A model generated the notes under the pieces. That model worked only from the letters and a program-made list of their open reading frames with translations. It was not told where the DNA came from and did not search any database. A stretch of DNA of 55,863 nucleotides, taken from Candidatus Iainarchaeum sp. (GTDB taxonomy: Archaea; Iainarchaeota; Iainarchaeia; Iainarchaeales; Iainarchaeaceae). Shown one piece after another: positions 21,550-39,104 of the stretch. The stretch lies in assembly GCA_002687735.1 (NCBI GenBank), contig NZBD01000016.1, positions 1-55,863 of the forward strand. The letters run 5' to 3'. The translations under genes were made by a program, and so were the position numbers. The first letter of the stretch is position 1. Each line of letters opens with the position of its first letter.

Positions 21550-21626
21550 TATGATCAGCGAATCTACCAATGCTTTGAATACTAAACCCACATAATATAC
21601 TTATTTCAGGCAATTATTGGCAGTTT

Positions 21627-21642: not shown

Positions 21643-21672
21643 TTTAATCACTAATTCACGTTAAAAGTTAAC

Positions 21673-21680
21673 TATAAATA
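21673..21680 (+). promoter_or_regulatory. TATA-like box TATAAATA about 27 nt upstream of the ATG at 21703
   Basis: Sequence and spacing. Confidence 0.45.
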
Positions 21681-21702
21681 TGGGTTTTGCAGTAATTGTA
21701 AT

Positions 21703-22371: not shown

Positions 22372-22381
22372 TTTTACAAAA

Positions 22382-22849: not shown

Positions 22850-22861
22850 GGTGTTTATTAA

Positions 22862-23182
22862 TTATTCAGTGAAAAACGAAAACCCTTCTTCTTTTATCTT
22901 TTTGACGAATTCTTCATCAGAACCAAATTGTTTTCTTTTAGCAAGAATTCTTTCAACACCAATATTAGTTAGTATATCATTAGTTCCGCGAGCCCCTAAT
23001 TCGGAAATCATTGATTTGAGTAATAGTTTACCAACTTTAGAACCAAATTTTTCGCCTAGTTGAGCAATAAATTTTTGTCTTTCTATTTTTATCGATTCAG
23101 GTTCAAGAGCTTTTCTTCTCTCCAATTGTTTTCTCAACGCACGTTGTTCAGGAGTAGCTTTGTGTTTTCTTCTTTCATGCAT
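22862..23182 (-). CDS. hypothetical basic protein (orphan)
   Basis: ORF 22862-23200. The likely start MHERRKHKATPEQRALRKQL has a T-rich TATA-like element about 27 nt upstream. Confidence 0.5.
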   Translation of the reverse strand: MHERRKHKATPEQRALRKQLERRKALEPESIKIERQKFIAQLGEKFGSKVGKLLLKSMISELGARGTNDILTNIGVERILAKRKQFGSDEEFVKKIKEEGFSFFTE

Positions 23183-24268: not shown

Positions 24269-25435
24269 TTAAAGCCCTGCATCTTTCTTAAGTTCATCTG
24301 CCTTGTCGGTTTTTTCCCAGGTGAAATCAGGATCGTCTCTGCCAAAGTGACCATACGCAGCTGTTTTCTGGAATATTGGCCTTCTTAGGTTTAGTTCCTC
24401 AATTATTTGAGATGGTTTAAGCTTGAAATGCTTTTTCACAAGCTCCTCAATCTTTTCCTCTTCGATTTTGTTGGTGCCTTTGCAGTCAACCAAAACAGAA
24501 ACAGGATCAGCCACACCAATAGCATAAGCTAATTCAACCTCACACTTATCAGCTAAGCCTGCAGCAACAATATTTTTTGCAATATACCTAGCTAAATAAG
24601 TTGCTGAACGATCAACCTTTGAAGGATCCTTTCCTGAAAAACAACCCCCGCCATGAGCACCTTGGCCTCCATAAGTATCTACAATTATTTTTCTTCCGGT
24701 TAAGCCGGCATCCGCGACAGGCCCACCCACAATAAACGCACCGGTAGGATTAATGTGATACTTAGTATTATCATCAACCCAATCAGCAACAACAGGCTTG
24801 ACCACTTTCTCAATAATTTCCTTCTCAATCTGGTCATGGCTTACTTTTGAATCATGCTGTGTGGAAATAACCACAGTATCAACTCTAACCGGTTTTCCAT
24901 TATTGTATTCAACAGTAACCTGACTCTTACCATCAGGCCTTACCCAGTCAAGGGTTTTGTTCTTTCTGACCTCAGCCAGTTTCATTGTTAACTTATGAGC
25001 TAAAGTTATTGGCAAAGGCATTAGCTCAGGAGTCTCATTAGTAGCATAACCAAACATCATTCCCTGATCTCCGGCCCCCTGTTCCTCATGCAGACCTTTG
25101 CCCTCATCAACACCCTGAGCTATGTCAGGACTTTGTTCTGAAAGAGAAATTAAAACAGAGCAGGCATCAGAATCAAAACCATACTCTGGTTTATCGTAAC
25201 CTATTTGCCTTATTGTTTCTCGTGCAACGTTCTGTACATCAACATACGTTTTGGTTGTCACTTCTCCAAAAACAAGAATCAAACCTGTTTTGGTTGAAGT
25301 TTCAATTCCAGCCCTTGTATTAGGGTCTTCTTTGATCATTGCATCCAAAATTGCGTCGCTTATCTGATCGCACATTTTATCTGGGTGCCCCTCAGTTACT
25401 GACTCGGATGTAAAAAAATGTTTTTCTTTACTCAT
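24269..25435 (-). CDS. metK: S-adenosylmethionine synthetase, bacterial/eukaryotic-type MetK
   Basis: [34 protein letters not shown] and [25 protein letters not shown]. The ATG at 25435 is preceded by GGAGGT. Confidence 0.95.
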
Positions 25436-25505
25436 AAGCAAAAACCTCCAAATTATGTTTTATAATGCAAAGCACAGAAAGGTTTAATAATAATTTCTAC
25501 TGTTA

Positions 25506-25530: not shown

Positions 25531-26100
25531 ATGATGCTGCCAGAATTGAGTGAAATCAAGCACCAGAGAAAAAAATTAGATTTAACACAAACTGAATTGG
25601 CAAAAGAAACAAGAGTAAGCCAATCGTTGATAGCAAAAATTGAAGCAGGAAGCATTGTTCCTTCTTACTCAAATGCAAAGAAACTGTTTGATTTTTTTGA
25701 AACAATAAAAAAGAAACACGAAGCCAAAGCATCTGAATTTATGATCTATAAAGTTCTGAGTGTGAAACCTGATTCAACAGTAAAGTCGGCAATTAAAGCA
25801 ATGGAAAAATATTCTGTTTCACAATTGCCCGTAATTGAGGAAGGAAAAAATTTGGGGACTATTTCTGAGAAAAATGTTCTGGAGGAAATAAATAATTCTG
25901 AAGAAGGAAATGTACTTGAAAAAAAAGTTTCAGAAGTCATGGGGGAAGCTATGCCGCAAATTACTGAAAATACCCCTTTTGATGTTGTTTCTTCTATAAT
26001 GGGACATTCTTCCGGGGTTTTGGTTACAAAACATGGAAAGATTATCGGGATTATAACCAAGGCTGATTTGCTGAAATCGGTTGTTTCTAATAAGCATTAA
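25531..26100 (+). CDS. XRE-type HTH plus CBS-pair domain regulator
   Basis: LTQTELAKETRVSQSLIAKIEAG is an HTH_3-like segment. It is followed by two CBS-like repeats (VKSAIKAMEKYSVSQLPVIEE...; ...GVLVTKHGKIIGIITKADLL). Confidence 0.8.
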   Translation: MMLPELSEIKHQRKKLDLTQTELAKETRVSQSLIAKIEAGSIVPSYSNAKKLFDFFETIKKKHEAKASEFMIYKVLSVKPDSTVKSAIKAMEKYSVSQLPVIEEGKNLGTISEKNVLEEINNSEEGNVLEKKVSEVMGEAMPQITENTPFDVVSSIMGHSSGVLVTKHGKIIGIITKADLLKSVVSNKH

Positions 26101-26137
26101 TTAAAGTAATATACTAGAGAAACTCAGCAAAACGATA

Positions 26138-26148
26138 TTTTTATAAAA
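26138..26148 (+). promoter_or_regulatory. TATA-like TTTTTATAAAA upstream of the surface-protein operon
   Basis: It is the only strong TATA-like element between 26101 and 26201. It implies a ~30-nt 5' UTR before the TTG start at 26202. Confidence 0.35.
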
Positions 26149-26201
26149 GGCTTCATGTCACTACTTAATAGTAACGAATTAATTTGTCGGGGTTTAGTTA
26201 A

Positions 26202-29200
26202 TTGAATTTCAAAAACATTTTTGCAATATTATTCGCAGTACTTTTTTTGGTTAGCTTTGCGGCTAGCGCACATGCAGATGTTATTACAGTTACAGAATCT
26301 ATACCAGGAAGAAATTATGAGTTAGATCACAGTTTTCTTGATAACGATCCTGTAAGTCAAAGTATTACAGCTTACTGTCCTGACAACTATGAAATTGTTA
26401 CAGGGAATTGTGAAAGCGATTATCTGCGTTCATTCGGATCATTAAGAGAAGATATTGATTCTTTTGCTGATTCAGTAACCTGCACATATAGAATTGATTT
26501 CCCTTGGGCTTGCGGAGACGCTTTCCAGATTGTTTGTCCGTATATAGAAGCAACTGCTGTTTGTGAGTCTGATGGCACTAATGGCGGAAGCGAAACTAAT
26601 AACCCTCCAACTTTGTTCGGGTTGCCTAATGTAAGTGTTGAGGAAAATTCAGGATTAAACTCAGATTTGATAGACCTCTGGGATTATGTGGATGATGAAG
26701 ATTTTGATTATGAAATTAACTTTAGAATACTCGCTGAATCAAACTCAGGATTAGTTGATTGCATAATAGAAAATAACAGATACTTAAGCTGTTCTGTTGA
26801 AAGATCAGATTTAGGATCAAGCGCAGTTACAATAGAAGCAGAGGATACTTACGGAGCAACAGATATTGATTCTTTCACTGTTAGTGTTACCTCAGACAAT
26901 GATGATCCAAACCTTAGCGGAATTCCAACTGTTTATGTTGCTGAAAATGATGGTTTTCAGGACAATGTAATTGATCTTCACAATTATGTTTTTGATAATC
27001 AGGATTCAGATTCAGAATTAGATTTTGATATTACTAACCAAACAAACACAGGATTAATTTTTTGCGAAATAGACCAGGACAGGTACATTGACTGCGATGA
27101 TCCCGCAACTGACCAAACAGGAACAAACACAATCACTGTAAGAGTAACAGATACAGACGGAGCAACAGATACAGACTCTTTCAGAGTAGAAGTAATAGCG
27201 GATGACACTAACGAGGCACCTGTATTAAGCGGCATTCCTAATGTTGATTTAGATGAAAATGACGGCGCACAGGATAACCTGATTGATTTGTATGCTTATG
27301 CTTTTGATAACGAAGATTCTGAGTCAGAATTAACATTTGATATTATAGCCAATAGCGATTCAGGTTTGATTTATTGTGATATTGATCAGGACAGATACAT
27401 TGACTGCGACCCTCCTAGGTTTGATAGTTCAGGAAGCAATACAATTACTGTAGAGGTAACCGACACAGATGGGTTAAGCGATACTGATTCATTCATTATA
27501 ATTGTAAACGATATTTTTGATGATCCGAATGATACACCTACAATAAGCGGTCTGCCAAACCTTTCAATAGAGGAAAATGCAGGAGCAAGAAACAACTGGA
27601 TTGACCTTCACTCATATGCTTTCGATCAGGAAGATTCTGATTCAGAACTTGATTTCAGGATTTCTAACCAGAACAACACAAGCCTTATTTTCTGCTCAAT
27701 AGACCAAGACAGGTACTTTGAGTGTGAAGCTCCAAGAGATGATTATACAGGAACAAGCACAATTACAATAGAAGTGGAAGACCAGCAGGGAGCAACAGAT
27801 TCGGATACTTTTACAATAGAAGTTGTTGCACAGGACTCAGGAGTATGCTCAGATATTGATATTGATACAAGAACAATATTCATTGATGAGGATGATTCAG
27901 AAACAATAAGATTTGATATTAGGAATCTGGGCGATGATGACTTTAGGTTGTTTGATGTGGACGTAGATGTTACAAACAACAGCAGTTTTTTAGATGCAAG
28001 AGACACTGACTTTGATACATTTATCAGAGAAGATGGGGAAGGAGAAGTGGAAATAAGGTTAGAAAGTTTTAATGTTTCAAGCGACAGAGAAGCAACAGTC
28101 AGAGTAAGAATAAGAGGAGAATTTGATAATGGAAACAGTTGTAGCTTTTCAGATATTGAAGAATCATTCAGAGTATGGATTGATAATGAAGGATCAAGTG
28201 GGTCTGGAAGCGGAAGCAATTCTTGTTCAGATATTGATTTTAAACAAAGAACTGTTTCAATGGATGAATCTGATAGAGAAACATTCAGGTTTGATGTTGA
28301 AAACAATGGAAATGATGATTTCAGAATTACTGATGTTGATGTTACAGAAACCAGCTCCTATTTGAGTATTGTTGACTTTGATGACAGAGGCACAATAAGA
28401 GACAATGATGAACTTGCACTTGAAATAGAACTAAGAAGTAATAATGTTTCAAGCGACAGAACAGCAACTGTTTACGTTGATTTAAGAGGAGAGTTTGATG
28501 ATGGGAGAAGCTGTAGCTTCTCACAAATCGGCAGGGAATCATTCAGGGTTGAAATTGAGAACTCTGGTTCAGGAAGCAGCAACATCTGTAATGATATTGA
28601 AATTGATGCTTCAGATGTTACAATAGCAGAAGATAGTTCAAGAACAAAAATAATCAGAATAAAGAATGAAAACAACAGAAGTTTTGATGTTGATAATATT
28701 ACTGTTTCAGAAAGTAATTCTTACTTTAACATCAGTATAAGAGATGAACCTGAAAGGATCTCGGCTAATGATGAGGAAGAACTGGAAATTAGAATATACA
28801 CAAATAATGTTTCAAGAGATAAGAGCGGAGATGTTGAAATAAGAGTTTCAGGAGAATTCAGTAACGGAGTTAATTGTTCAAGCTCTAGAATAACAGAAGA
28901 ATTTAGGGTTACTGTTGATAACAGAGGATCAGGAAGCTCAGACGATGATGATCGGGATGATGAAGACTTTGATGGTTCAGTAAAGATAGATTTTTCAAAC
29001 AACTTTGCAATCTTAGAAGAAGGCCAGACTAAAAACATTAATGTTACAATCAAAAATGGTTTGGACAACAGACAATGTTTTGATTTAAGTTCTAATGATA
29101 CACCCGTATTCAGCACTTCCCTGTCAAGCACAGAGATCTGTGTTTCAGAAAATGGATCAGAAACAATAAGCATGAGCATAACGGGCAGAAACTCAGGAAC

Positions 29201-29693
29201 AGATAATGTTAGGTTTGAAGCAGAGTATGATGGTATTTCAAAGATTAAATTTGTAAGTGTAGAGGTTTTAGGAGATGAGATTATAGGAGAAAGACCACGG
29301 ATAAGTGTTCCTGATGATTCGGAAGAGCTTTTCAGGGATAATGAAATAATCATCACAAACACAGGGCCAGAATTAAGGAACGTTACAATAAGAGCATTGA
29401 ATGCACCCGAAGGAGTTAATATTGAGGAAGTTCAACTAAGCAGGTGGGAACCAGGAGAAACCCTAGGAATAGAGGTTGATATAGAACCCGGTTTTGATGA
29501 TGTTGTTAGCATTACTCTGAGTATTAGCTCAGATTCAGGTTCAATTGGGGTTCCGGTAGAATTTAAGGCAAGTGAAGGACAAGGATTTACAGGATTAGTT
29601 GGATTAGCAACAACCGCAGGAATGGCCATTGGATTAATTATACTTATAGTTTTGGCTATACTGGGCATTTTAAGCGTATTTTCAAGGAAATAG
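26202..29693 (+). CDS. giant modular surface protein 1 (1163 aa): signal peptide, Cys-rich head, 4 cadherin-like repeats, 3 Cys-bracketed beta-sandwich repeats, 2 further Ig-like modules, C-terminal GFTG motif plus TM plus short basic tail
   Basis: The TTG start gives MNFKNIFAILFAVLFLVSFAASAHA. The internal repeat architecture was read directly from the translation. The C-terminus is ...GQGFTGLVGLATTAGMAIGLIILIVLAILGILSVFSRK. Confidence 0.85.
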   Translation: MNFKNIFAILFAVLFLVSFAASAHADVITVTESIPGRNYELDHSFLDNDPVSQSITAYCPDNYEIVTGNCESDYLRSFGSLREDIDSFADSVTCTYRIDFPWACGDAFQIVCPYIEATAVCESDGTNGGSETNNPPTLFGLPNVSVEENSGLNSDLIDLWDYVDDEDFDYEINFRILAESNSGLVDCIIENNRYLSCSVERSDLGSSAVTIEAEDTYGATDIDSFTVSVTSDNDDPNLSGIPTVYVAENDGFQDNVIDLHNYVFDNQDSDSELDFDITNQTNTGLIFCEIDQDRYIDCDDPATDQTGTNTITVRVTDTDGATDTDSFRVEVIADDTNEAPVLSGIPNVDLDENDGAQDNLIDLYAYAFDNEDSESELTFDIIANSDSGLIYCDIDQDRYIDCDPPRFDSSGSNTITVEVTDTDGLSDTDSFIIIVNDIFDDPNDTPTISGLPNLSIEENAGARNNWIDLHSYAFDQEDSDSELDFRISNQNNTSLIFCSIDQDRYFECEAPRDDYTGTSTITIEVEDQQGATDSDTFTIEVVAQDSGVCSDIDIDTRTIFIDEDDSETIRFDIRNLGDDDFRLFDVDVDVTNNSSFLDARDTDFDTFIREDGEGEVEIRLESFNVSSDREATVRVRIRGEFDNGNSCSFSDIEESFRVWIDNEGSSGSGSGSNSCSDIDFKQRTVSMDESDRETFRFDVENNGNDDFRITDVDVTETSSYLSIVDFDDRGTIRDNDELALEIELRSNNVSSDRTATVYVDLRGEFDDGRSCSFSQIGRESFRVEIENSGSGSSNICNDIEIDASDVTIAEDSSRTKIIRIKNENNRSFDVDNITVSESNSYFNISIRDEPERISANDEEELEIRIYTNNVSRDKSGDVEIRVSGEFSNGVNCSSSRITEEFRVTVDNRGSGSSDDDDRDDEDFDGSVKIDFSNNFAILEEGQTKNINVTIKNGLDNRQCFDLSSNDTPVFSTSLSSTEICVSENGSETISMSITGRNSGTDNVRFEAEYDGISKIKFVSVEVLGDEIIGERPRISVPDDSEELFRDNEIIITNTGPELRNVTIRALNAPEGVNIEEVQLSRWEPGETLGIEVDIEPGFDDVVSITLSISSDSGSIGVPVEFKASEGQGFTGLVGLATTAGMAIGLIILIVLAILGILSVFSRK
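26601..27836 (+). repeat. four tandem ~100-106 aa (about 310 bp) coding repeats, acidic cadherin-like / Ig-like modules
   Basis: The recurring pattern is P-x-[LI]-SG[IL]PN[VL]-x-[VLI]-x-EN-x-G...IDL-x-x-Y-x-FD-x-[EQ]DS[DE]SEL-x-F...DQDRY[IF][DE]C...G[ST]NTITV-x-V-TD-x-DG-x-[TS]D[TS]DSF. Units start near aa 134, 236, 339 and 445. Confidence 0.85.
27843..28940 (+). repeat. three tandem ~120-126 aa (about 370 bp) coding repeats joined by Gly-Ser linkers
   Basis: Each unit starts x-C-[SN]-DI[DE] and ends ...NVS[SR]D[RK]...[RV][GS]GEF[DS][ND]G-x-[SN]C[S]-x-S...FRV-x-[IV][DE]N-x-GSGS. Units start at aa 548, 674 and 795. Confidence 0.85.
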
Positions 29694-29775
29694 GGCCTTT
29701 TTAAACAAAGAAACATTTATATATGAGCTAAGCAGCAATAGATATAACAAAGTCGAGTGAACAAGTGAACTTATT

Positions 29776-30591
29776 ATGAAGTTTTGGGGAACTTTAATTT
29801 TGGTATTAGCATTGCTCCTATCAACTGGAGCATCAGCTTTTGTAAATAGCCTAGAGAACACAATCAGTGTGGGAGAAAGCGCTTACGAATTATCCTACAC
29901 AGTTGAAAACACCTCAAACATCAGACAGCCACTTACAGTTGATTACGATCTGCCAACCTATTTTGAAATTATTAAACAACCAAATTATGTTAACGCAAAC
30001 TCAACACAGGAAATTGTTGTGAAGATTTTACCACAGCAAGGTTTTGAGGGAACAACTTACACCGGAATGATTTCTATTAATCTTGGCGGAAACAGGGCAG
30101 AAAAAAGAGTTAGTATTTCATACTTAAGAGAAAATAACTGTGTTGTTGAAAGAGAGGTTTCACTAATCGAAAATAAGGTCAGAATTACACTTGAAAATAA
30201 TTCTTACAAAGACAAAACAATCAAATTAAGCGAAGTTAGGAACTTACCAAATGATTGGGCTATTACAAGCACAAGTTTTGTTCTGAATGGATTTGAAAAG
30301 AATACTTACGAACTTGAATTGCAGAAAGGAAGTTCTTTTGACGGAACACTAGAATTTGTATTTGAATGTCAAGGCAATTTATTCACAAACAAAGTAGAAG
30401 TAGAACATGAGGGAAACGATTTTACAGGATTTGCAATTATAGGAAGCGCTCTTGAAAGTGTTGATTCCGAATTAATTATTGATATTTTCTTAGTTATCAT
30501 AGCAGCAATTCTGTTGATAGCTTTTATCGCAAGACTGGTAAGAATTTTGAATTCGGGCGGAAAACAGACAAAAATCGAGGTGGACCAATGA
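29776..30591 (+). CDS. surface protein 2 (271 aa): signal peptide, two beta-sandwich-like modules, DFTGF motif, TM anchor
   Basis: N-terminus MKFWGTLILVLALLLSTGASA. C-terminus ...EGNDFTGFAIIGSALESVDSELIIDIFLVIIAAILLIAFIARL. The stop overlaps the next start (ATGA). Confidence 0.8.
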   Translation: MKFWGTLILVLALLLSTGASAFVNSLENTISVGESAYELSYTVENTSNIRQPLTVDYDLPTYFEIIKQPNYVNANSTQEIVVKILPQQGFEGTTYTGMISINLGGNRAEKRVSISYLRENNCVVEREVSLIENKVRITLENNSYKDKTIKLSEVRNLPNDWAITSTSFVLNGFEKNTYELELQKGSSFDGTLEFVFECQGNLFTNKVEVEHEGNDFTGFAIIGSALESVDSELIIDIFLVIIAAILLIAFIARLVRILNSGGKQTKIEVDQ

Positions 30592-32759
30592 ACTTTTTGA
30601 AACACGCAATGTTCGCAATAACATTAATCTTAATTTCAATGACCGCAATGGCAGTAACAACTCCGGAAATTGAAGGAGTTCCAGATATTACTATTCCAAT
30701 GAATGCTGAACCACTTGTGAAATTTGTTGACCTAAGAGATTATGCAAGAGATGATTTTTCAAGTGCAGGAAATTTGTTTTACAGAATACAAAACGAATCT
30801 AATGTAAACTTAGTTGATTGTTTTATAGAAGACGATTATTATGTTAGTTGTGAAGCTCCAAAGAGAGGAGTTTTAGGAACAAACACAATTACAGTTCAGG
30901 CTGTTAACTCAAAAGGAACCGCAGACAGCGATGAGTTTAATGTAAAAGTTTTTTCAGATGCTTTGCCTGAAGATGTTATTTTTTCAGTTGACAGGGACAA
31001 AGTAGTAATTGAACCAAATGATTCAATCAATGTTGTTCTTACAATAGAAAACCAGTTTCCTGAAAGAAAATGCTTTGAACTTTATTCAGAACTTGACAAT
31101 AATGAAAGGGACGATATAAGAGCTACTCCTGCAAAGGACAGTTTTTGTCTTAACGGAAACGAAAGAACAAGCTTGTCAATGACTATAACGAGTTTTGATG
31201 ATGCGAGAGTAGATCTTTATGATGTTGATGTAATTCTTGATTATGGTCAAGGAAGCAGAGAATTAAGCGTAGATGTGGAAATTGTTGATTTAGAGGAACC
31301 ACTAGAACTTTTCAGAACCAGCGATTATTATGTTTGCAGAACTCCTTACACACAGGAAATCGGAATAAGACTTGAAAACAATTCAAGCAGATATCAGGAG
31401 ATTTCTTTAAACGCAGAACACGAATTGTTACTGCCAGAGTTTGAATATTTTGTAACAAGGTTAGCTGCAAATGCTTATGATGAAATGGTTATGAGAATTC
31501 ATGTTAATCAGACAACTGCATTAACTGATTATACAATACCAGTTTTCATCAGAAGCGAAAATTATTTTGTTGAAAGAGATATTAAAATCAGGTTAATTGA
31601 CTGTGAGGATAATGCTTTTGATCTTGATGTTACTCCAAACGAACAAAGAATTGAAAGAGGAGACAGAGAATTTTACACAGTAATCCTTACAAGTGTTGAT
31701 GATGAGGCACAGGATGTAAGGTTAAGTGTTGATAGTGATCTTCCAACATCACTTGAAAGATATGATGTTTACCTACCCGCTTATGGCGAAGTTAAACTTG
31801 ATTTGGAAGTCAGAGCAAGAGAAAGCGATGATGACGGAACACACAGAATTAAAGTTACAGCATGGAATAGTAAAGAAACTGAAGAAGAAACTGTAAAAGC
31901 AATAGTTGAATCTGAACACATACTTGAAATGATTATAGAAAATAATGATTTTGATGCAAGGATTTGTTCAGCAACCAGCGGACAGGTTTTTGAGGCAAGG
32001 ATCCTGAATAAAGGAGACTTTGATGAAACAGTTACACTTACACTTGCATACGTACCCGAGTCCGTACAAGCGGTACTCTCCGAGGATGAAATTGATATAG
32101 AGGCAGGGGGAGAGAAAATCGTGTACGTATTCATAAACCCTTCATTCGGAACACCATTAGGAAACTACACCTTAACATTGATAGCTGAATCAGACAATGA
32201 TGAACTAAGAGAACAGCTAAGGTTTAAGGTTGTAGAAGCAGAACAAAACGCAATCGAGGGAGTAATTGAAATAACTTCATACCCAAGAGAAGTTGTTCTT
32301 GTTCCGGGTGAGGAAAAATTACTTAGCTTTACAATAAAGAACTCACTTTCAGGAAGAATGGATAATGTAAGATTAAGATTTTTCGGAGCAAATAACGGAG
32401 TTACTGTTTTCCCAATGAGCTTAGGTTCATTAGAAGGAGGAGAAAGCATTACAGTTAACAGAAAAATAAAGGCTTCTGAATCAGTATCTGAAAAAGTGTA
32501 TGATTCAGTGATAGAGGTTAGGGCTGATGGTTATGTAACCACGGTTCCAATGAGGATTAAAATTACAGAAACTCCAGAAGAAGAAATTGACGAAGAAGCC
32601 GGTTTACTGGCAGGATTCGCTGTTTTAGGAGGAGGAGAGATAATTCTCGGAGGAGTTATAATTATAATACTTCTCTTAGCAATAATAGTAGTGTTGTCAC
32701 TACTTAACAGTAACGAATCAAAAGGGGCAGAGTATTTAACAGAAAACAGAGGAGCATAA
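30588..32759 (+). CDS. surface protein 3 (723 aa): signal peptide, one cadherin-like module, ~5 CARDB/NEW3-like beta-sandwich modules, LAGFAVLG motif, TM anchor
   Basis: GAGGTG lies 6 nt upstream. The N-terminal module (aa 24-121) is homologous to the protein 1 repeats (NTITVQAVNSKGTADSDEF). The module RKCFELYSEL...FCLNGNERTSLSMTITS parallels RQCFDLSSND...ICVSENGSETISMSITG in protein 1. Confidence 0.85.
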   Translation: MNFLKHAMFAITLILISMTAMAVTTPEIEGVPDITIPMNAEPLVKFVDLRDYARDDFSSAGNLFYRIQNESNVNLVDCFIEDDYYVSCEAPKRGVLGTNTITVQAVNSKGTADSDEFNVKVFSDALPEDVIFSVDRDKVVIEPNDSINVVLTIENQFPERKCFELYSELDNNERDDIRATPAKDSFCLNGNERTSLSMTITSFDDARVDLYDVDVILDYGQGSRELSVDVEIVDLEEPLELFRTSDYYVCRTPYTQEIGIRLENNSSRYQEISLNAEHELLLPEFEYFVTRLAANAYDEMVMRIHVNQTTALTDYTIPVFIRSENYFVERDIKIRLIDCEDNAFDLDVTPNEQRIERGDREFYTVILTSVDDEAQDVRLSVDSDLPTSLERYDVYLPAYGEVKLDLEVRARESDDDGTHRIKVTAWNSKETEEETVKAIVESEHILEMIIENNDFDARICSATSGQVFEARILNKGDFDETVTLTLAYVPESVQAVLSEDEIDIEAGGEKIVYVFINPSFGTPLGNYTLTLIAESDNDELREQLRFKVVEAEQNAIEGVIEITSYPREVVLVPGEEKLLSFTIKNSLSGRMDNVRLRFFGANNGVTVFPMSLGSLEGGESITVNRKIKASESVSEKVYDSVIEVRADGYVTTVPMRIKITETPEEEIDEEAGLLAGFAVLGGGEIILGGVIIIILLLAIIVVLSLLNSNESKGAEYLTENRGA

Positions 32760-32763
32760 CAAC

Positions 32764-35700
32764 ATGGATTACAAAATATTACTAGCAGGACTATTACTAC
32801 TTATTTTTGGAGTCTACGCTCACAGTGCTGATGTTTCAGGTACTTGTGGAGATGACTCTCTTCAGTGTGAAATTTCATTAAACAATATGGAACTTTGTAA
32901 CAATTCAACAGTTACAGAAACTTATGATGCTTACTTTAACGGAGAATATTCACAGTGGTTTAATGTAATTCCAAATCAGGTTACATTAGCACCTGGTGAA
33001 TGTACAGACCTGAAAGTTTATACGGTTGCAAACTGTTATGCAGACCCTGGATTTTACACAGCAAATTTAATTATTCAGGATGGAGAAACTTTATCAGTTA
33101 CTTGTTCACTTGATTTAAGACAAGGGCACTTTGTTGATATTGAAGTTGAACCTTACAGCCAGAACGCAACTCAGTGTGAGGAAAAAGTTTACGATTTAAT
33201 TGTTACAAACAACACAATTGTTCCAAACCAACAGATTGAAAGAGTAGATTTAAGCATTAGCGGAATTCCTGAATCTTGGTATGTTTTGGAAGAAGAAAGA
33301 ATTCTTGTTGAAAAAGGCTATCCTGAAACAGTAAAATTAAGAGTTCAGGCGCCTTGTGATGCAGATTTTGGAGCTTATGATTTTACCGCAAGAGCAACTC
33401 TTCCAAACCCTAACTTTTATGATGAGGATGACGGAGAATATGTTCTTGATCAGGGTCAGTCAATTCAGGTTTTGTTAGAAACAGGTTTTGATGCAAGAGT
33501 ACATGATGCTTGTTTAGAAATTCCAACAGAAGGAAAAATAACTTTAATTAACAACGGAATGCTTTCAGACAACCTAAAACTTACTCTTGAGGGATCAGGC
33601 TTCGCAAGACTTGATAAAACTCAGGTATCTTTAAGTTCAGGAGAAGAAGAAACAATAACAGTTGATTTCCTGCAAACAATTATTGCACCCGGAGAATATG
33701 ACTTTACACTTAGAGTTGAAAGCACAGTATTTGATTATTCAACAACCAAGACTTTTACCTCAAACCTTCAGGATTGTTTCAATGTAGAAGTAATAAAATT
33801 AGAAGGAGAAAGCAATGTTTGTGTGGAAGATGACCCAGTCTACAGATTCAGGGTTACAAACAACAAAGTAATGGCTGTTGATCTTGATATAAGCATTGAA
33901 GGAATCGAAGCTGACCTTGACAGAACAAATATTCTTGTTGAGCCTGGCGAATCAGAAGAGTTTGAAGCTTTACTTGATGTTAGCGATTTAGCAAGAGAAG
34001 CAAGAGTAAGCAAAACAGATCTTGCAGTTGAGATAATCATTGATACCTCAGGTTCAATGGTTGAAAGAATCAACGGAGACACCAAGATGGAGATTGCTAA
34101 AACATCAATAATTAACTTAGTAAACAACATCAACGAAGTTGACCTTGGATTAAGAGTATTAGGACAGGGAGAACTTTGTGAGGACTCAGAATTATTGGTT
34201 GGAGTAGATAAACTTGATATCGCAAGAATTACGGATGAAGTTTCAGAACTAAACCCAAAAGGAAAAACTCCTTTGACTCAGGCACTAAGAGCCAGTATAG
34301 AGGACTTCCCGGAAGCTAAAGAAAAAGCAGTAATTCTTGTAAGTGATGGAAAAGAAACATGTGAAGGAAACATAAGTGAAACAGCAAGAGAATTAGCTTC
34401 ACAAGGAGTAATTGTTTACTCGGTTGGATTTGACATTGATGAGGAAGGACAAGAACAGTTAAGGGAAATTTCAAGCAGAACCGGAGGCAAATACTTCGAT
34501 GCAAGAAACCCAGAGGAACTTGTTGATGTTTTACAGAAAATCTCACAAGAACTTGATATTGTTCCAAGCAATGAAGGAAAAAGAACTTTCACTTTGAACC
34601 TTGATTCAGAGAACTTTTCTTATGAAAAAGATTTCAGTTTAACAATCAGCGATTGTTACAACGCAACAATGGTTGCACCGGAACTTAACTTATGTTCAGG
34701 AGTAACCAAAAGCGATGTTGTAACCTTAGTGAACCTTGGTTCAGAAACACAGGAATTTGATATTAACATTGAACCTAACTGGATTGAAATACCAGGAACA
34801 GTTACAATTGAACCAAACAGCGAAGCAATAATTCCACTAACTGCAGTAGTTCCGGAAGATGCAAGCGAAGATTCATACACAATAAGCGCAGTATCAGGAA
34901 CCATTAGGTTAAATCAGGAAAAGAACATTAATTATCTTTCAAGCGCAAGCTGCTTTGGAATTGATATGATATTGTTAGAGCCAACTCTTAATGCAGCAAC
35001 ATGTGAAGGAAAGAAACAAACCTTAATCATAGAAAACAGAGGAGTTGTTGAGCAAGAGGTTACAATAACCGCTGACAAACCTTATGTGGAAATTGTTGAA
35101 AGTGTTATTACTGTTGCACCAGGGGAAAGAAAAGAAGTTAACTTCTTTGTAAGTCCTCCATTTGACTTGCCTGAAACAACATTCATAAACATAACTGCAG
35201 AAACAGAAAGAGGTTTCAAAACAAGTGCTCAGATCAAGTTAATGGTTTTCGGAAACCAGGAATCATTTGGTTTGGGAGAAGTTGATGTAAGGGTAAGAGA
35301 CCTTAACATTACTGAAGTTGAAGGACTTGAACATGATCTGGAAGTAGTGTTTGATATTTACAATGATTCAAACAGAACACTGGAAGTATTCAATGTAACT
35401 TCACTTGATTATAATGCAGTTGTTCAGCTGGATAAAAGATTCATACAGGCAAAAAGAACAGTCATGGCAAGAATGTTAATAGACCTTCCTGATGAATTCA
35501 CTTCAAGAACAATAACTGTCCCAATAAGAATGGAAACAGACGAGGGCACTTACACAAGAAACATTGTGTTTTCTTACGAGGAATCTGAAGATGATGAACC
35601 AACACAGGGAGAAGTTGATGAGCCAATCAGCGTCGGAACTGGATTGTTTAGTTTAGCAACATTATCAACAGCATTACTTGGAGCACTTATAATAATTGTT

Positions 35701-35928
35701 ATTGGTTTGGTTGTTTACTCTGCTTACAGAGCAGTACAGCAAGAACCTGAAGAAAAACCAAAAGAAGATGAAGGCACTAAAGCTGCAAAGGCAAAATTGG
35801 CCGAAGTTAAAACTAAGAAAGGTTCAAAGAAAGCTGCGACCAAAGGTGCTAAAAAGCCAGCAAAAACAGCTAAAAAGCCGGTTAAAAAAACCAAAAAGTC
35901 AGCTAAGAAAAAAGGTAAAAAGAAATAA
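32764..35928 (+). CDS. surface protein 4 (1054 aa): signal peptide, multiple beta-sandwich modules, central vWA domain with intact MIDAS, TM anchor, 66-aa Lys/Ala/Pro-rich cytoplasmic tail
   Basis: The vWA domain spans about aa 419-595 (nt 34018-34548), with DTSGS at 34042-34056 plus the downstream T (KGKTPLT) and D (LVSDGK). The TM helix is LLGALIIIVIGLVVYSAY. The tail is KAAKAKLAEVKTKKGSKKAATKGAKKPAKTAKKPVKKTKKSAKKKGKKK. Confidence 0.88.
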   Translation: MDYKILLAGLLLLIFGVYAHSADVSGTCGDDSLQCEISLNNMELCNNSTVTETYDAYFNGEYSQWFNVIPNQVTLAPGECTDLKVYTVANCYADPGFYTANLIIQDGETLSVTCSLDLRQGHFVDIEVEPYSQNATQCEEKVYDLIVTNNTIVPNQQIERVDLSISGIPESWYVLEEERILVEKGYPETVKLRVQAPCDADFGAYDFTARATLPNPNFYDEDDGEYVLDQGQSIQVLLETGFDARVHDACLEIPTEGKITLINNGMLSDNLKLTLEGSGFARLDKTQVSLSSGEEETITVDFLQTIIAPGEYDFTLRVESTVFDYSTTKTFTSNLQDCFNVEVIKLEGESNVCVEDDPVYRFRVTNNKVMAVDLDISIEGIEADLDRTNILVEPGESEEFEALLDVSDLAREARVSKTDLAVEIIIDTSGSMVERINGDTKMEIAKTSIINLVNNINEVDLGLRVLGQGELCEDSELLVGVDKLDIARITDEVSELNPKGKTPLTQALRASIEDFPEAKEKAVILVSDGKETCEGNISETARELASQGVIVYSVGFDIDEEGQEQLREISSRTGGKYFDARNPEELVDVLQKISQELDIVPSNEGKRTFTLNLDSENFSYEKDFSLTISDCYNATMVAPELNLCSGVTKSDVVTLVNLGSETQEFDINIEPNWIEIPGTVTIEPNSEAIIPLTAVVPEDASEDSYTISAVSGTIRLNQEKNINYLSSASCFGIDMILLEPTLNAATCEGKKQTLIIENRGVVEQEVTITADKPYVEIVESVITVAPGERKEVNFFVSPPFDLPETTFINITAETERGFKTSAQIKLMVFGNQESFGLGEVDVRVRDLNITEVEGLEHDLEVVFDIYNDSNRTLEVFNVTSLDYNAVVQLDKRFIQAKRTVMARMLIDLPDEFTSRTITVPIRMETDEGTYTRNIVFSYEESEDDEPTQGEVDEPISVGTGLFSLATLSTALLGALIIIVIGLVVYSAYRAVQQEPEEKPKEDEGTKAAKAKLAEVKTKKGSKKAATKGAKKPAKTAKKPVKKTKKSAKKKGKKK

Positions 35929-35935
35929 ATAAATT

Positions 35936-36598
35936 CTATTTTTTCCCATTTAAATAAAAGTAGTTGGCCACAAAAGGACTATTAATTAAAAGAGCCTTTT
36001 CCTGGTCTTCTGATCCTTTTTCCTGATTCAAAAACAGCATTACACTGTTTTTATCAAATACCACAAATCTTGAACTTAAGCTTGGTTTTGAAATTACCTT
36101 CACACCTTTACTTGTTAAAGAGGCCAGTTTTTTATCAAAATAGCCTTTTTTTCTCTTCAAACCAGACTCTGAAGAGCAGATTAGCACGTTTTCTTTGGTG
36201 TTTTCTAGCTGTTCTGCTATTTTTGAGTAAATATTACGTCTTCCCTCTACTACCCAGGCAGAATCACTAAAATCAGCTTCAATATTGGCTTTTTGCTCGA
36301 GAGTTTTAGCTATAACTTTGAATTCTTCCAGGTTTTTATCAAGCTCTTTTTGCTTAGTTTCAGAAACAGATTCTACTGCTGTAAGCGGTTTTACAACACG
36401 GAATTCTATGGGTTTGGAAGCACTTCTTGTAACAAAACCTTTTTTTTCAAGGGAAAAAAGCACATCATAAACCCTTGCTCTCGGAATGTTTGAGGATTTA
36501 CTTACAAAAACAGCACTGGCCTTACTATTGTCTAAAAGGGCATTGTAAGCGCGTGCTTCATACTCGTTTAAGCCAAGTTTTTTTATACTCTCAATCAT
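35936..36598 (-). CDS. TrmB-family transcriptional regulator
   Basis: N-terminal LGLNEYEARAYNALLDNSKASAVFVSKSSNIPRARVYDVLFSLEKKGFV is the TrmB winged-helix signature. Confidence 0.85.
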   Translation of the reverse strand: MIESIKKLGLNEYEARAYNALLDNSKASAVFVSKSSNIPRARVYDVLFSLEKKGFVTRSASKPIEFRVVKPLTAVESVSETKQKELDKNLEEFKVIAKTLEQKANIEADFSDSAWVVEGRRNIYSKIAEQLENTKENVLICSSESGLKRKKGYFDKKLASLTSKGVKVISKPSLSSRFVVFDKNSVMLFLNQEKGSEDQEKALLINSPFVANYFYLNGKK

Positions 36599-38372: not shown

Positions 38373-39104
38373 ATGAATAAAATAGCTGTGCTGAGTTTGG
38401 TAATTCTCCTTGTAGCAGGAATGGTGTTAGCCCTTCCGGAACAAGCTAATCCTAAAGCAGACAAAGGCCCTATTGAAAAAATCACTTTTATCCATTACAA
38501 AAAAGGCCATGCAAAACCTCCTTGGGCAGGAGGAGGAAATGATAAAAGCAAAGTAACTTGTTATGCATTCTTATCAAAAGGTGCAAAGTGGAAAACAACT
38601 GAAAACTTTTTAATTAACCCAACTAATTCACAAGGTTTGAGCGAATCATTAATTGTAAATTCAACCAATGCAGGAATCAATGAATGGGATTCAGAAGTTA
38701 CGTTTGATGTTTTTGGAACAGGATCAGTTGATTATACTGCTTCTTATAACAACGGAGACTATGACGGCATAAACACTCTTTCATTTGGAGACATTAATAA
38801 ATTAGGAGCAATCGGAGTAACAACAGTATGGGGTTACTTTAGCGGAAAACCATCAACAAGAGAATTATTAGAATGGGACATGCTTCTTGATGAAGTTGAC
38901 TTTGACTGGGGAAACAATGATGCTAACAAAATGGATGTTCAGAACATTATTACTCACGAATTAGGACATTCAGCCGGAATGAGCGATCTTTATGAAGCCG
39001 GATGCAATGATGAAACTATGTATGGTTACTCAAACGAAGGCGAAACTTCAAAAAGAGACCTTAATTCTGGAGATATTGAAGGAATCCAGAAGCTTTACAA
39101 ATAA
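38373..39104 (+). CDS. secreted metzincin-type zinc metalloprotease (HExxHxxGxxD variant, Met-turn present)
   Basis: Signal peptide MNKIAVLSLVILLVAGMVLA. Active site HELGHSAGMSDLY, followed by ETMYGY. Confidence 0.8.
   Translation: MNKIAVLSLVILLVAGMVLALPEQANPKADKGPIEKITFIHYKKGHAKPPWAGGGNDKSKVTCYAFLSKGAKWKTTENFLINPTNSQGLSESLIVNSTNAGINEWDSEVTFDVFGTGSVDYTASYNNGDYDGINTLSFGDINKLGAIGVTTVWGYFSGKPSTRELLEWDMLLDEVDFDWGNNDANKMDVQNIITHELGHSAGMSDLYEAGCNDETMYGYSNEGETSKRDLNSGDIEGIQKLYK

Follow-up and report, generated by a model that had tools for sequence, protein, structure and literature searches.

Gram-positive sortase-assembled pilus clusters encode tip adhesins, such as RrgA, GBS104 and SpaC, together with backbone and base pilins. 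In Myxococcus, CglB and CglD are described as bacterial "integrin-like" VWA adhesins (PMC9946355; bioRxiv 10.1101/2023.10.19.562135). For archaeal surfaces, the protein SLP_Mh shows that S-layers can occur on DPANN cells (bioRxiv 10.1101/2021.04.28.441871). Published binding sites of TrmB-family regulators include TACT-N3-AGTA in Pyrococcus and TACT-N7-8-GAGTA in Halobacterium, as well as the TGM site TATCAC-N5-GTGATA, and TrmB sites located downstream of the TATA box act as repressor sites (PMC4158304). Here, we compare these systems with a locus in a 55,863-nt stretch of DNA from Candidatus Iainarchaeum sp. (the window), which encodes four surface proteins, P1 to P4, and includes the following features.

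24269-25441, minus strand: metK, divergent from the XRE-CBS gene
25531..26100, plus strand: gene for an XRE-HTH regulator with two CBS domains (Pfam)
26128..26148, plus strand: putative P1 promoter, a BRE-like purine run followed by a TATA-like box, TTTTTATAAAA (read from the sequence)
26157..26175, no strand assigned: palindrome copy 1, GTCACTACTTAATAGTAAC, core CACT-N7-AGTA, over the predicted P1 transcription start
26202-29693, plus strand: P1, ORF of 1163 aa with a TTG start
26598..27824, plus strand: four tandem cadherin-like repeats of P1, aa 133-541 (self-comparison; Pfam Big_9 and He_PIG)
29698..29749, plus strand: P1-P2 spacer, putative promoter of P2-P3-P4 (spacer comparison)
29776-30591, plus strand: P2, ORF of 271 aa
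30490..30540, plus strand: transmembrane (TM) helix of P2, aa 239-255, the best-conserved stretch of the P2 family
30588-32759, plus strand: P3, ORF of 723 aa
32696..32714, no strand assigned: palindrome copy 2, GTCACTACTTAACAGTAAC, within the 3' end of the P3 coding sequence
32764-35928, plus strand: P4, ORF of 1054 aa
34021..34554, plus strand: VWA domain of P4, aa 420-597 (Pfam, alignment and model)
35737..35925, plus strand: cytoplasmic tail of P4, an acidic stretch followed by a lysine-rich end, KKPAKTAKKPVKKTKKSAKKKGKKK
35936..36598, minus strand: trmB, TrmB-family regulator of 220 aa, convergent with P4 across a 7-nt gap

The initial annotation had the gene structure right: the four ORFs are co-oriented and have exactly these coordinates and lengths, and both the 4-nt ATGA overlap of P2 and P3 (30588-30591) and the 4-nt gap between P3 and P4 (32760-32763) can be read directly off the sequence. 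Its description of the proteins as giant was too strong for products of 271 to 1163 aa. Also in agreement with it, each protein has a signal-peptide-like N terminus, stacked β-sandwiches and a single C-terminal TM helix. Hydropathy identified one N-terminal hydrophobic segment per protein, ending in AxA-like sites (AHA, ASA, AMA and AHS), and one C-terminal TM segment, and AlphaFold2 models of P3 and P4 reproduced the sandwich stacks. We propose, with a probability of roughly 0.6, that P1 to P4 form an Iainarchaeota-specific, paralogous and cation-dependent surface or adhesion complex, with P1 and P4 under the control of TrmB.

The domain plan of P4 comprises a signal peptide, four Ig-like domains, a VWA domain, three further Ig-like domains, a TM helix (aa 969-991) and a cytoplasmic tail. 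Residues 424-590 matched the VWA profile (PF00092; E = 8e-12; 46.1 bits against a cut-off of 23.8) and a second one, VWA_2 (PF13519; E = 2e-8; 35.3 bits against a cut-off of 27). The initial annotation had missed this domain. Its MIDAS residues are D427-x-S429-x-S431, T502 and D528; across 27 family sequences, D427, S429, S431 and D528 never vary, and T502 is kept in at least 90%. Many cysteines are likewise invariant in the P4 family. The AlphaFold2 model (pLDDT 76.8) showed seven β-sandwiches, a TM helix and, at aa 420-597, the VWA fold with its Rossmann-like alternation of strands and helices, the nearest solved structures being VWA domains of the BatA/BatB type (4rck and 3ibs). The cytoplasmic tail is disordered in the model, and K plus R make up on average 0.38 of the last 30 residues of P4 in the 27 family members.

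P1 comprises a signal peptide, a Cys-rich N-terminal domain, four cadherin-like repeats, three copies of a further "B" unit (aa 546-665, 669-790 and 793-910), two Ig-like units and a TM anchor. The cadherin-like repeats (aa 133-229, 233-335, 337-443 and 444-541) are 46-65% identical, with D-x-N-D/E-x-P linkers and acidic DTDGxxD loops, and two Pfam families exceeded their cut-offs in P1 (He_PIG, 33.3 bits against 24; Big_9, 33.3 bits against 23.6). The linkers D-D-T-N-E-A-P and D-P-N-D-T-P resemble DxNDNxP, and the cadherin profile PF00028 had no match in P1 to P4 in a Pfam search; "cadherin-like" is a fair label, and plain "cadherin" would go too far. P3 comprises a signal peptide, six β-sandwich domains, of which the first is cadherin-like, and a TM helix (aa 688-706); its AlphaFold2 model (pLDDT 81) recovered all six domains and the helix. 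As the initial annotation had stated, P1 and P3 share two units: the cadherin-like one (aa 26-121 in P3; 32% identity; score of 151, compared to 34 +/- 6 on average after shuffling) and a CF[DE]L...SM[ST]IT unit (aa 915-1020 in P1 and aa 140-201 in P3; score of 75 against 32 +/- 5 for shuffled sequences). P1 is a variable accessory paralog of P3, with orthologs of 602-1344 aa and a repeat number that differs between species.

P2 has a signal peptide, two Ig-like domains and a TM helix with an invariant LLIAFIAR motif, i.e., eight consecutive invariant residues across 15 sequences of only 35-85% overall identity. Conservation in this helix is 0.89 versus 0.54 in the ectodomain, and its synonymous codon identity is ordinary (0.44 versus 0.42), so the constraint acts on the protein. 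The TM regions of P1, P3 and P4 are likewise conserved, and a pre-TM motif, [TSA]-G-[LF], is shared. P1 and P3 can be aligned over most of their length (blastp, 3e-23), aa 318-713 of P3 match aa 615-998 of P4 with an hhalign probability of 99.2, and the C-terminal part of P2 matches aa 503-710 of P3 with a probability of 90. Judged by these alignments, all four proteins are paralogs, which bears out the earlier suggestion that the cluster grew by internal duplication. The D+E content is 17.5-22% in P1, P3 and P4 and 12.5% in P2, and N-X-S/T sequons are 2- to 3.5-fold denser in P1 to P4 than in other ORFs of the window, both in keeping with surface proteins. Foldseek searches with the models matched nothing more specific than generic arrays of Ig domains, at TM-scores no higher than about 0.36, and structure therefore adds no functional assignment. 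Apart from the P4 VWA domain, profile and structure searches agreed with the initial annotation that P1 to P4 have no characterized homolog beyond generic domains. The search for a characterized S-layer or adhesin family in which to place them came out negative, and the cluster therefore stays uncharacterized.

Full-length P4 was found in 26 species-level loci, and all of those with a named lineage belong to Iainarchaeota/Diapherotrites, as does every named relative, in line with the DPANN origin that the initial annotation had suspected; the remaining P4 matches are bacterial proteins that align to the VWA domain only. The cluster occurs in no group other than Iainarchaeota (Diapherotrites), whose loci are strongly syntenic, in the order metK, XRE-CBS, [P1], P2, P3, P4, trmB and aminotransferase, so that the synteny expected in relatives is present and includes both regulators. 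This synteny could in part reflect general collinearity inside one phylum rather than functional linkage. Wherever a locus has room for it, P2 directly precedes P3, including in L086 and L087, which lack P4, and the pair with its 4-nt overlap persists in distant lineages without P4 and trmB. P1 is absent from L022-L024 and L032. P2-P3 is the oldest core, P4 and trmB were added at the level of a clade, and P1 is an accessory that varies.

An alternative hypothesis, which we consider rather unlikely, is that P1 to P4 are the S-layer or main coat of Iainarchaeota, in which P3 forms a constitutive lattice with P2 as its membrane stalk partner in a structural, not adhesive, role, and P4 and P1 are lattice-associated components. 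The cluster occurs throughout the sampled lineage in one conserved locus beside housekeeping genes, P2 is preceded by a consensus-like BRE/TATA and is translationally coupled to P3, and the proteins are acidic, rich in sequons, built of six Ig-like domains and anchored at the C terminus. Such a domain plan resembles that of the S-layer glycoprotein of Haloferax volcanii, and the two proteins of SlaA/SlaB are arranged in a similar way. That the surface of most DPANN phyla is uncharacterized also counts for a coat (bioRxiv 10.1101/2021.04.28.441871). However, the S-layer models PF05123 and PF05124 and those of NCBIfam gave no match at E <= 0.1, the AlphaFold2 models are elongated rods, and the presence of operator-like elements at P1 and P4 suggests that these two genes, at least, are expressed conditionally.

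The initial annotation had considered a host-attachment or cell-cell contact system plausible; on this reading, the locus would encode an apparatus dedicated to such contacts in a DPANN episymbiont. The adhesion-type domain content that it assumed is present, in the form of the MIDAS-VWA domain and the cadherin-like repeats, although VWA and cadherin-like folds have nonadhesive roles too. P1 to P4 evolve fast relative to metK, and both the rapid divergence of the ectodomains and the variable length and repeat number of P1 would be expected of proteins that interact with a partner. Against this, P4, which carries the binding domain, evolves more slowly than the other three, and its MIDAS and many of its cysteines are invariant, unlike in a receptor in an arms race, and the P2-P3 core occurs in distant lineages without a recognizable adhesion domain. 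In addition, a review (PMC6349945) reports the argument that Candidatus Iainarchaeum andersonii could live on its own. We therefore regard a dedicated attachment apparatus as improbable and retain the broader reading of a surface or adhesion complex.

Gene synteny and promoter elements suggest how such a complex might be expressed. The initial annotation had treated the cluster as a four-gene operon. The P2-P3-P4 junctions are tight, whereas the 82-nt P1-P2 spacer holds a conserved putative promoter of its own: a T-run after the P1 stop (29698-29702), a BRE/TATA (AGAAACA TTTATATA, 29709-29723) and two further conserved elements, GCAGCAAT at 29732-29739 and ATATAACA at 29742-29749. Read by eye, a TATA-like box is recognizable in about 14 of the 17 such spacers compared, and roughly half of the spacers also have the GCASCAAT and ATATAACA elements further downstream. 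Upstream of P1, a TTTAAATA-type box lies 8 nt before a palindrome in 6/7 orthologous regions. Since P1 and P2-P3-P4 each have a conserved BRE/TATA, a single four-gene operon is unlikely, and the two units are probably transcribed from separate promoters, with a conserved operator-like site preceding P4 as well.

This operator-like site is a 19-nt palindrome, YACT-N7-AGTR, a candidate site of the TrmB type that occurs twice at the cluster and is similar to the published sites TACT-N3-AGTA and TACT-N7-8-GAGTA. Copy 1 lies 8 nt past the TATA box and hence across the predicted P1 start site; copy 2 falls in the P3 codons for S-L-L-N-S-N and precedes the P4 ATG by 50 nt. With at most three mismatches, the window contains two matches against 0.09 expected, and across 431 kb of Iainarchaeota loci all 22 near-exact copies (22/22) are at these two positions, at both of which the generalized YACT-N7-AGTR is about 55-fold enriched. 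The last 120 nt of P3 contain it in 17/27 loci, versus 0.31 expected. Synonymous codon identity at copy 2 is 0.92, compared to a P3 gene mean of 0.47 (sd 0.11), and ranks at the top of 152 windows; the maximum elsewhere is 0.55 in P2 and 0.63 in P4.

The trmB product passes the winged-HTH TrmB profile (PF01978; aa 6-71; 3e-21; 75.4 bits against a cut-off of 25.6), and Pfam thus bore out both regulator calls of the initial annotation, TrmB and XRE-CBS. Its sugar-binding domain is weak (PF11495; E = 0.014; 15.1 bits against a cut-off of 22.2), the NCBIfam TrmB equivalog models all scored well under threshold (63 against 650, for example), and it has 220 aa compared to about 340 for sugar-sensing TrmB/TrmBL1; by these profiles and its length, it appears to be without a full sugar-binding domain. 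The gene adjoins P4 in most loci. Copy 2 is present in 16/19 loci with an adjacent trmB and in 1/7 without (Fisher p = 0.002, with loci uncorrected for phylogeny), the exceptions being L017, with the motif and without an adjacent trmB, and L020 and L024, with trmB and without copy 2. The promoter region of trmB in the window has no copy of the palindrome. Indirectly, the form, position and enrichment of the motif and this co-occurrence make the TrmB-family protein a candidate binder of the palindrome.

It has to be asked whether the four genes could instead be tandem duplicates without joint function, the 19-27-nt element being a relic of duplication or an RNA-level signal and not an operator. 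All four proteins are paralogs, the likeness of the two motif copies reaches past the palindrome (TGTCACTACTTAAYAGTAACRAATYA), and copy 1 can be read as MSLLNSNE, the same peptide as in the P3 tail, as expected of a relic. However, copy 1 is kept in noncoding DNA of loci whose P4 proteins are just 44-64% identical, and a relic would have diverged over that distance. The arms co-vary in L018 and L026, so that the palindrome is kept and the peptide reading is lost, and in L018 copy 1 is a perfect 8-3-8 palindrome. As for an RNA signal, the hairpin in the window is weak (-1.8 kcal/mol; z = -0.3) and is not formed at copy 2, and the predicted P1 start falls inside the element, so a transcript would carry only half of it. 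The P2-P3-P4 order is fixed across the lineage, with overlapping or near-overlapping junctions, which argues for co-function. Duplicates without joint function and with a vestigial element are thus a doubtful explanation, and an operator within a functional complex remains our preferred one.

The second regulator is better explained by its other neighbor. The initial annotation had listed XRE-CBS as one of two regulators flanking the cluster; it is probably not the regulator of the cluster. The gene is paired divergently with metK in all loci, including the inverted pair of L013 and L086 and L087, which lack P4 and TrmB; in L017, the pair is absent next to the cluster. Because the pairing persists when inverted or without P4 and TrmB, XRE-CBS is likelier a metK regulator and probably belongs to metK, not to the surface-protein cluster.

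We favor a cation-dependent surface or adhesion complex of the cell envelope, in which P1 to P4 would be type I membrane glycoproteins, exported by the Sec pathway and held by their C-terminal TM helix, each projecting a rod of immunoglobulin-like domains from the cell. From TM conservation and gene coupling, P2 and P3 probably form a heteromer, an ancient and translationally coupled core joined through TM and juxtamembrane segments. P4 would contribute the MIDAS-VWA domain, for ligand binding via a divalent cation, and a polybasic cytoplasmic tail, and P1 a variable number of cadherin-like, probably Ca2+-binding, repeats. P1 would have a promoter to itself, and a second promoter would serve P2-P3-P4. 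The TrmB-family protein probably represses or otherwise modulates P1 and P4, the genes with adhesion domains.

Of the known systems, sortase-assembled pilus clusters likewise encode several paralogous surface proteins with Ig-like domains, each of which begins with a signal peptide and ends in a hydrophobic segment and basic residues; one member, here P4, has a MIDAS-VWA domain within an Ig-like stalk. In contrast to the hosts of such pili, this organism is an archaeon without a cell wall; no LPxTG-type motif ([LIV][PA].[TSA]G, as a regular expression) was matched in P1 to P4, and a Pfam scan of ten membrane or secreted ORFs of the window found no sortase. Moreover, the length and conservation of the P4 cytoplasmic tail speak against cleavage at the C terminus. 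Archaeosortase processing finds no more support: no signal exceeded its cut-off in the C-terminal 55-66 aa of P1 to P4 (E <= 10), the lone match, PEF-CTERM, reached 12.4 bits against a cut-off of 23 and covered the TM helix alone, no PGF motif and thus no PGF-CTERM signal was found near the C termini, and no archaeosortase was present among the same ten ORFs.

Like Haloferax volcanii csg, Sulfolobus SlaA/SlaB and Micrarchaeota SLP_Mh, P1 to P4 are acidic and sequon-rich, start with a signal peptide, consist of Ig-like arrays and are anchored in the membrane at the C terminus, and they share the two-gene, large-plus-small arrangement of archaeal S-layer systems. Unlike in S-layer genes, there is a VWA domain and a predicted regulated promoter, both atypical, and the profiles S_layer_N (PF05123) and S_layer_C (PF05124) were among those without a match. 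Closest to the P4 VWA domain are the BatA/BatB-type bacterial proteins (4rck, 3ibs and 4jdu; profile E of 5e-11 to 2e-6), and bacterial VWA domains are 30-41% identical to P4 at aa ~400-610. Only this domain is common to both, as Bat proteins have no Ig-like arrays and a poorly defined function, which suggests that a bacterial-type VWA domain may have been inserted into a P3-like paralog to give P4.

With integrins and CglB/CglD, P4 shares a MIDAS-VWA domain among β-sandwich domains in a type I membrane protein or surface adhesin; these bind ligand through the cation, and the same is proposed for P4. As in integrin α/β, the conserved TM segments suggest heteromeric assembly, and a cytoplasmic tail is present. 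However, only the VWA fold is common (NCBIfam CglB, E = 0.0027, far below cut-off), P1 to P4 have no β-propeller, EGF or PSI domains, and signaling would be hypothetical. For the putative regulation, known TrmB targets are genes of sugar transport and metabolism rather than surface-protein genes, known operators differ from the candidate copy inside the P3 coding sequence, and known repressors from this short regulator with its weakly detectable sugar-binding domain. The locus nonetheless resembles TrmB systems in that the regulator gene adjoins its putative target cluster and in that a YACT/AGTR-armed inverted repeat lies downstream of the BRE/TATA, across the predicted start site.

The surface-protein cluster consists of four co-oriented genes, and the ORF list places them exactly where the initial annotation had put them:

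26202-29693, + strand, P1, 1163 aa, TTG start
29776-30591, + strand, P2, 271 aa
30588-32759, + strand, P3, 723 aa
32764-35928, + strand, P4, 1054 aa

The junctions are as tight as claimed, with ATGA shared by the P2 stop and the P3 start and a gap of 4 bases between P3 and P4. Each protein has one hydrophobic segment at either end, in agreement with the proposed N-terminal signal and single C-terminal anchor; the first ends in an AxA-type site, and the second is strongly hydrophobic and followed by basic residues. P1, P3, and P4 are acidic (D+E = 17.5-22%) and P2 is not (12.5%). Because the other proteins of the window are not unusually acidic, halophily was rejected as the cause and acidity is regarded as a surface-protein trait. 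N-X-S/T sequons are 2-3.5 times denser in P1-P4 than in other window ORFs. Growth of the cluster by duplication is borne out by blast and profile alignments, in which all four proteins are paralogous: P1 and P3 can be aligned across ~700 residues (3e-23), the final third of P4 corresponds to the C-terminal half of P3, with juxtamembrane and transmembrane (TM) segments included (hhalign probability 99.2, E 1.5e-19), and P2 resembles the last two P3 domains plus the TM helix (probability 90). Both modules said to be shared by P1 and P3 are indeed present in each. The cadherin-like unit occurs in four copies in P1 (46-65% identity), with D-x-N-D/E-x-P linkers, and in one copy in P3 (32% identity; score 151 compared to 34 ± 6 for shuffles), and the CF[DE]L...SM[ST]IT unit is common to aa 915-1020 of P1 and aa 140-201 of P3. 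A third repeated unit has three copies in P1. The AlphaFold2 model of P3 comprises six β-sandwiches and a TM helix (pLDDT 81).

P4 holds a VWA domain (aa 424-590; Pfam 8e-12) that was absent from the initial annotation. Residues of its metal-ion-dependent adhesion site (MIDAS), D427-x-S429-x-S431, T502, and D528, are invariant or nearly so across 27 family members, and the nearest solved structures are BatA/BatB-type bacterial VWA domains. In the AlphaFold2 model (mean pLDDT 76.8), four β-sandwiches are followed by the VWA fold, three more β-sandwiches, a TM helix (aa 969-991), and a disordered tail. This cytoplasmic tail (35737-35925) starts out acidic and turns strongly polybasic in a run of KKPAKK-type repeats that recalls histone H1. 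The composition of the tail, not its sequence, is kept family-wide; its partner could be membrane lipids, nucleic acid, or a cytoskeletal protein.

The TM helix is the most conserved part of P2, with eight consecutive residues (LLIAFIAR) invariant in 15 sequences whose ectodomains are ~40% identical. The helix contains GCAGCAAT, as does the P2 promoter, and we therefore considered a DNA-level element. However, synonymous codon identity at the helix is ordinary (0.44 compared to a gene mean of 0.42), which places the constraint on the peptide. P1, P3, and P4 are likewise well conserved in their TM and juxtamembrane segments. From this pattern of conservation, we infer specific intramembrane contacts, i.e., a putative heteromeric complex.

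Of the proposed four-gene operon, the contiguity of P2-P3-P4 stands, but a single P1-P4 unit probably does not. In the P1-P2 spacer, a T-run and a conserved BRE/TATA are followed by conserved GCASCAAT and ATATAACA. P1 is therefore likely to be a transcription unit by itself and P2-P3-P4 another, P4 having an additional control point ahead of it. In the P2 promoter region (29709-29749), GCAGCAAT (29732-29739) and ATATAACA lie past the consensus BRE/TATA and recur in related P1-P2 spacers, where they could be a promoter-proximal or initiator element or a second operator. At the other end of the cluster, P4 and trmB are convergent with 0-10 nt between their stops in many loci (35929-35935 in the window; also L009, L014, L020, L022, L024, and L028 from other genomes), leaving no room for separate terminators, and the 3' ends of the two transcripts therefore probably overlap.

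A palindromic element occurs in two copies:

26157-26175, palindrome copy 1, non-coding, before P1 (GTCACTACTTAATAGTAAC)
32696-32714, palindrome copy 2, in the P3 coding sequence, 50 nt before the P4 start (GTCACTACTTAACAGTAAC)

Copy 2 is a 19-nt imperfect palindrome. The peptide LSLLNSN, just past the P3 TM helix, reflects constraint at the DNA level: the codons TCA CTA CTT AAC AGT AAC are identical among loci whose P3 proteins are 32-56% identical, and synonymous codon identity at copy 2 reaches 0.92, compared to 0.47 ± 0.11 across P3 and maxima elsewhere of 0.55 in P2 and 0.63 in P4. Copies 1 and 2 are the only matches in the window at ≤3 mismatches (0.09 expected), and all palindrome matches in the window and 26 related loci (22/22 in 431 kb) fall at these two positions. 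The generalized core, YACT-N7-AGTR, occurs 45 times in 467 kb, with 17 occurrences within the terminal 120 nt of P3 (0.31 expected) and 10 in the P1 start region (0.19 expected). In two related loci (L018 and L026), the arms have changed together, so that a perfect palindrome is kept and the peptide reading is lost. Upstream of P1, the palindrome sits a constant 8 nt after a TTTAAATA-type box. Since the archaeal TATA box is usually centered near -26, copy 1 would lie across the P1 start site, covering roughly -14 to +5 of the predicted start. A reading as an RNA hairpin was rejected, as the hairpin in the window is weak and the predicted start site lies inside the element. An upstream ORF of 16 codons (26155-26205; MSLLNSNELICRGLVN), whose TGA stop overlaps the P1 TTG start, repeats the peptide found after the P3 TM helix. 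It was rejected as a real leader because the peptide reading is lost in L018; its ATG probably lies upstream of the transcription start, and the ORF is probably a by-product of the palindrome.

Both flanking regulators were confirmed by Pfam, one an XRE-HTH protein with two CBS domains (25531-26100, + strand) and the other a TrmB-family protein (35936-36598, - strand) with a winged-HTH domain and no convincing sugar-binding domain. Sites of TrmB-family repressors include TACT-N3-AGTA, TATCAC-N5-GTGATA, and TACT-N7-8-GAGTA and, when repressing, lie downstream of BRE/TATA and over the start site (PMC4158304). The palindrome matches them in form and position. Copy 2 is present in 16 of the 19 loci with trmB beside P4, compared to 1 of 7 without, both P4-less loci being among the seven (Fisher p = 0.002, ignoring phylogeny). 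On the strength of site form, position, and co-occurrence, we provisionally assign the palindrome to the adjacent short TrmB-family protein as its candidate owner. Further YACT-N7-AGTR copies lie 5 nt upstream of the trmB start in L012 (12886) and upstream of P2 in L020 (6311) and L031 (6144), which hints at possible autoregulation and lineage-specific rewiring of site-bearing cluster genes. Autoregulation at the window's own trmB promoter was rejected, as no motif copy was found there; a copy at trmB is present in L012 only.

The XRE-CBS protein, by comparison, is probably not a regulator of the cluster, being the divergent partner of metK in every arrangement, including an inverted pair (L013); in the window, metK (24269-25441, - strand) and the XRE-CBS gene are 89 nt apart. 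SAM and other adenosyl compounds are common ligands of CBS pairs, and the protein is therefore more likely a metK regulator. MetK itself is of the bacterial/eukaryotic type, with S-AdoMet_synt N, M, and C domains in its orthologs, and in L002 the metK/XRE-CBS pair adjoins homocysteine-biosynthesis genes (HcyBio, NIL-ferredoxin). The conserved pairing and this neighborhood suggest a SAM-responsive regulator of methionine/SAM metabolism.

Word-indexed homology searches returned full-length relatives of P4 (n = 28) and relatives of P3 (n = 17) and P2 (~15), named, where a name was given, only as "Diapherotrites archaeon" or "archaeon." When one genome per GTDB species was scanned, full-length P4 turned up in 26 loci; those with lineage names are all Iainarchaeota/Diapherotrites, including Ca. 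Iainarchaeum andersonii and the complete genome GW2011_AR10, and the remaining matches consist solely of bacterial VWA domains. An exhaustive profile search revealed more P3 relatives than the indexed one had implied, with 241 cluster representatives at E ≤ 1e-30. The conserved synteny that the initial annotation had proposed to look for was found: mapped with family HMMs on related loci, the order metK(-), XRE-CBS(+), [P1], P2, P3, P4, trmB(-), aminotransferase(+) is fixed, and P2-P3-P4 adjoin wherever the contig permits. This fixed order, together with palindrome conservation in non-coding DNA and the covariation of its arms, makes it improbable that the genes are unrelated tandem duplicates carrying a relic motif. 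P1 is absent from 4 loci and is 602-1344 aa long elsewhere, trmB is missing beside P4 in 5 loci, and in L017 the cluster is present without metK, XRE-CBS, or trmB. The loci of two distant P3 relatives (L086 and L087) have metK, XRE-CBS, and a 4-nt overlap between P2-like and P3-like genes, with no P4 or trmB. The history of the cluster is therefore layered: P2-P3 is an ancient translationally coupled pair, P4 and trmB arrived jointly in one large clade, and P1 is a later, variable paralog. Identity is 69-76% throughout for metK, compared to 23-56% for P3, 25-48% for P2, 26-48% for P1, and 34-64% for P4; the surface proteins are fast-evolving relative to metK, and P4 is the slowest of the four.

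Surface-protein content flanking the core differs by lineage. In L001, the most distant P4-bearing locus examined, P1 is replaced by an 878-aa gene on the opposite strand (3863-6499, -), and beyond trmB (14653-23087, -) lie three more large secreted proteins (1204, 610, and >1240 aa) with faint SpaA, Big_1, and CarboxypepD_reg matches. L086 (10181-13304, -) and L087 (9923-12266, -) have a conserved opposite-strand secreted set in the post-P3 position (~500 aa and ~190-207 aa; no Pfam matches), which may be a functional P4 replacement or unrelated. Elsewhere in the window, an ORF of 153 aa (41354-41815, - strand) has an N-terminus like an archaeal type IV pilin (class III) signal (MKQNMIEKKGQGTTEYLIILAVII...) and adjoins a secreted 361-aa protein (41923-43008, - strand) with a PKD domain (Pfam 1.7e-15); the two may belong to another surface structure, of the pilus type. 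A secreted matrixin-like metallopeptidase (38373-39104, + strand; Peptidase_M10, 1.5e-7) is encoded downstream of the aminotransferase gene and, directly past it, a six-TM ferric-reductase-like membrane protein (39144-39854, + strand).

We propose, with a probability of roughly 0.6 for the composite as a whole, that P1-P4 are exported by Sec, glycosylated, and retained by their C-terminal helices, projecting as rods of 2 (P2), 6 (P3), 8 (P4), and about 10 (P1) domains. P2 and P3 would be produced at a constant ratio and associate within the membrane, the MIDAS site of P4 would bind an acidic ligand through a bridging cation, and P1 would display Ca2+-type cadherin-like repeats. Both genes with adhesion modules are preceded by the palindrome, which suggests that TrmB may place adhesiveness under conditional control. 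The general claim, that the cluster encodes a surface complex specific to the lineage and built from paralogous Ig-like membrane proteins, is on much firmer ground than these specifics. A purely structural S-layer would explain why the cluster is ubiquitous in the lineage, and would suit its strong promoter and domain plan. However, such a role sits awkwardly with regulated promoters, and the S-layer Pfam and NCBIfam domains, the only testable mark of membership, were sought in P1-P4 and not found; we consider it rather unlikely. Host attachment, to which the domain types would be suited, seems doubtful in a lineage that may be free-living. Beyond the regulated adhesive complex that we favor, one may speculate, at long odds, that the Iainarchaeota cell surface is a heteromeric integrin-like receptor or coat. 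In it, three to four paralogous single-pass proteins would assemble through sequence-specific TM helices (the invariant LLIAFIAR of P2) and bind ligands or one another through the MIDAS-VWA domain and Ca2+-dependent cadherin-like repeats. P4 would couple the complex to the cell interior by its polybasic tail, and a TrmB-type repressor would switch the adhesive subunits, with one operator inside the coding sequence of the preceding gene. If true, archaea would have an envelope or adhesion system of a type not described before, and also a clear case of one sequence serving both as coding sequence and as operator.

To our knowledge, Iainarchaeota have no member in pure culture, and their envelope and surface biology is undescribed, as in most DPANN phyla. 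The best current candidates for major Iainarchaeota surface proteins come from this locus: P2 and P3 as a conserved pair, the MIDAS-VWA protein, and the cadherin-like protein, which is variable. They could be targeted with antibodies and by metaproteomics, assigned in cryo-ET, and expressed heterologously. The candidate link between a short TrmB-family protein and the 19-nt palindrome would carry TrmB regulation beyond sugar metabolism to surface proteins. Six codons frozen at the nucleotide level in P3 are a clean example of overlapping coding and regulatory constraint, and a caution that "conserved peptide motifs" in compact genomes may reflect constraint on DNA. Multidomain Ig/VWA surface proteins are of a known kind; what is new here is the protein-level invariance of the P2 TM helix and a candidate TrmB-type operator within coding sequence. 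The cluster, whose function we infer, is useful for DPANN cell biology and involves no categorically new mechanism.

Searches for known families agreed with the earlier view that no characterized homolog exists, the only families shared by sequence being VWA (BatA/BatB-like) and generic Ig. PDB sequence and profile searches with P1, P2, and P3 gave no meaningful match. Foldseek searches of the PDB with the P3 and P4 models returned only generic Ig/ASH-domain arrays at TM-scores of ≤ ~0.36 (ciliary central-apparatus proteins, complement and macroglobulin MG domains), and these model-based matches carry no functional information on P3 or P4. No paper tying Diapherotrites or Iainarchaeota to VWA or surface proteins was found in the literature searched. 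P1-P4 have in common [TSA]-G-[LF] directly before the TM helix, because they are paralogs. Known C-terminal sorting signals (PGF-, PEF-, and VPXXXP-CTERM and LPxTG) were tested in all four and rejected, none being found, and a Pfam scan of ten membrane and secreted window ORFs matched no sortase or archaeosortase. The conserved P4 tail argues against C-terminal cleavage. By architecture, P1-P4 come closest to the pilus clusters of Gram-positive bacteria, which have VWA tip adhesins, to MIDAS adhesins of integrin-like type, and to archaeal S-layer proteins built as Ig arrays.
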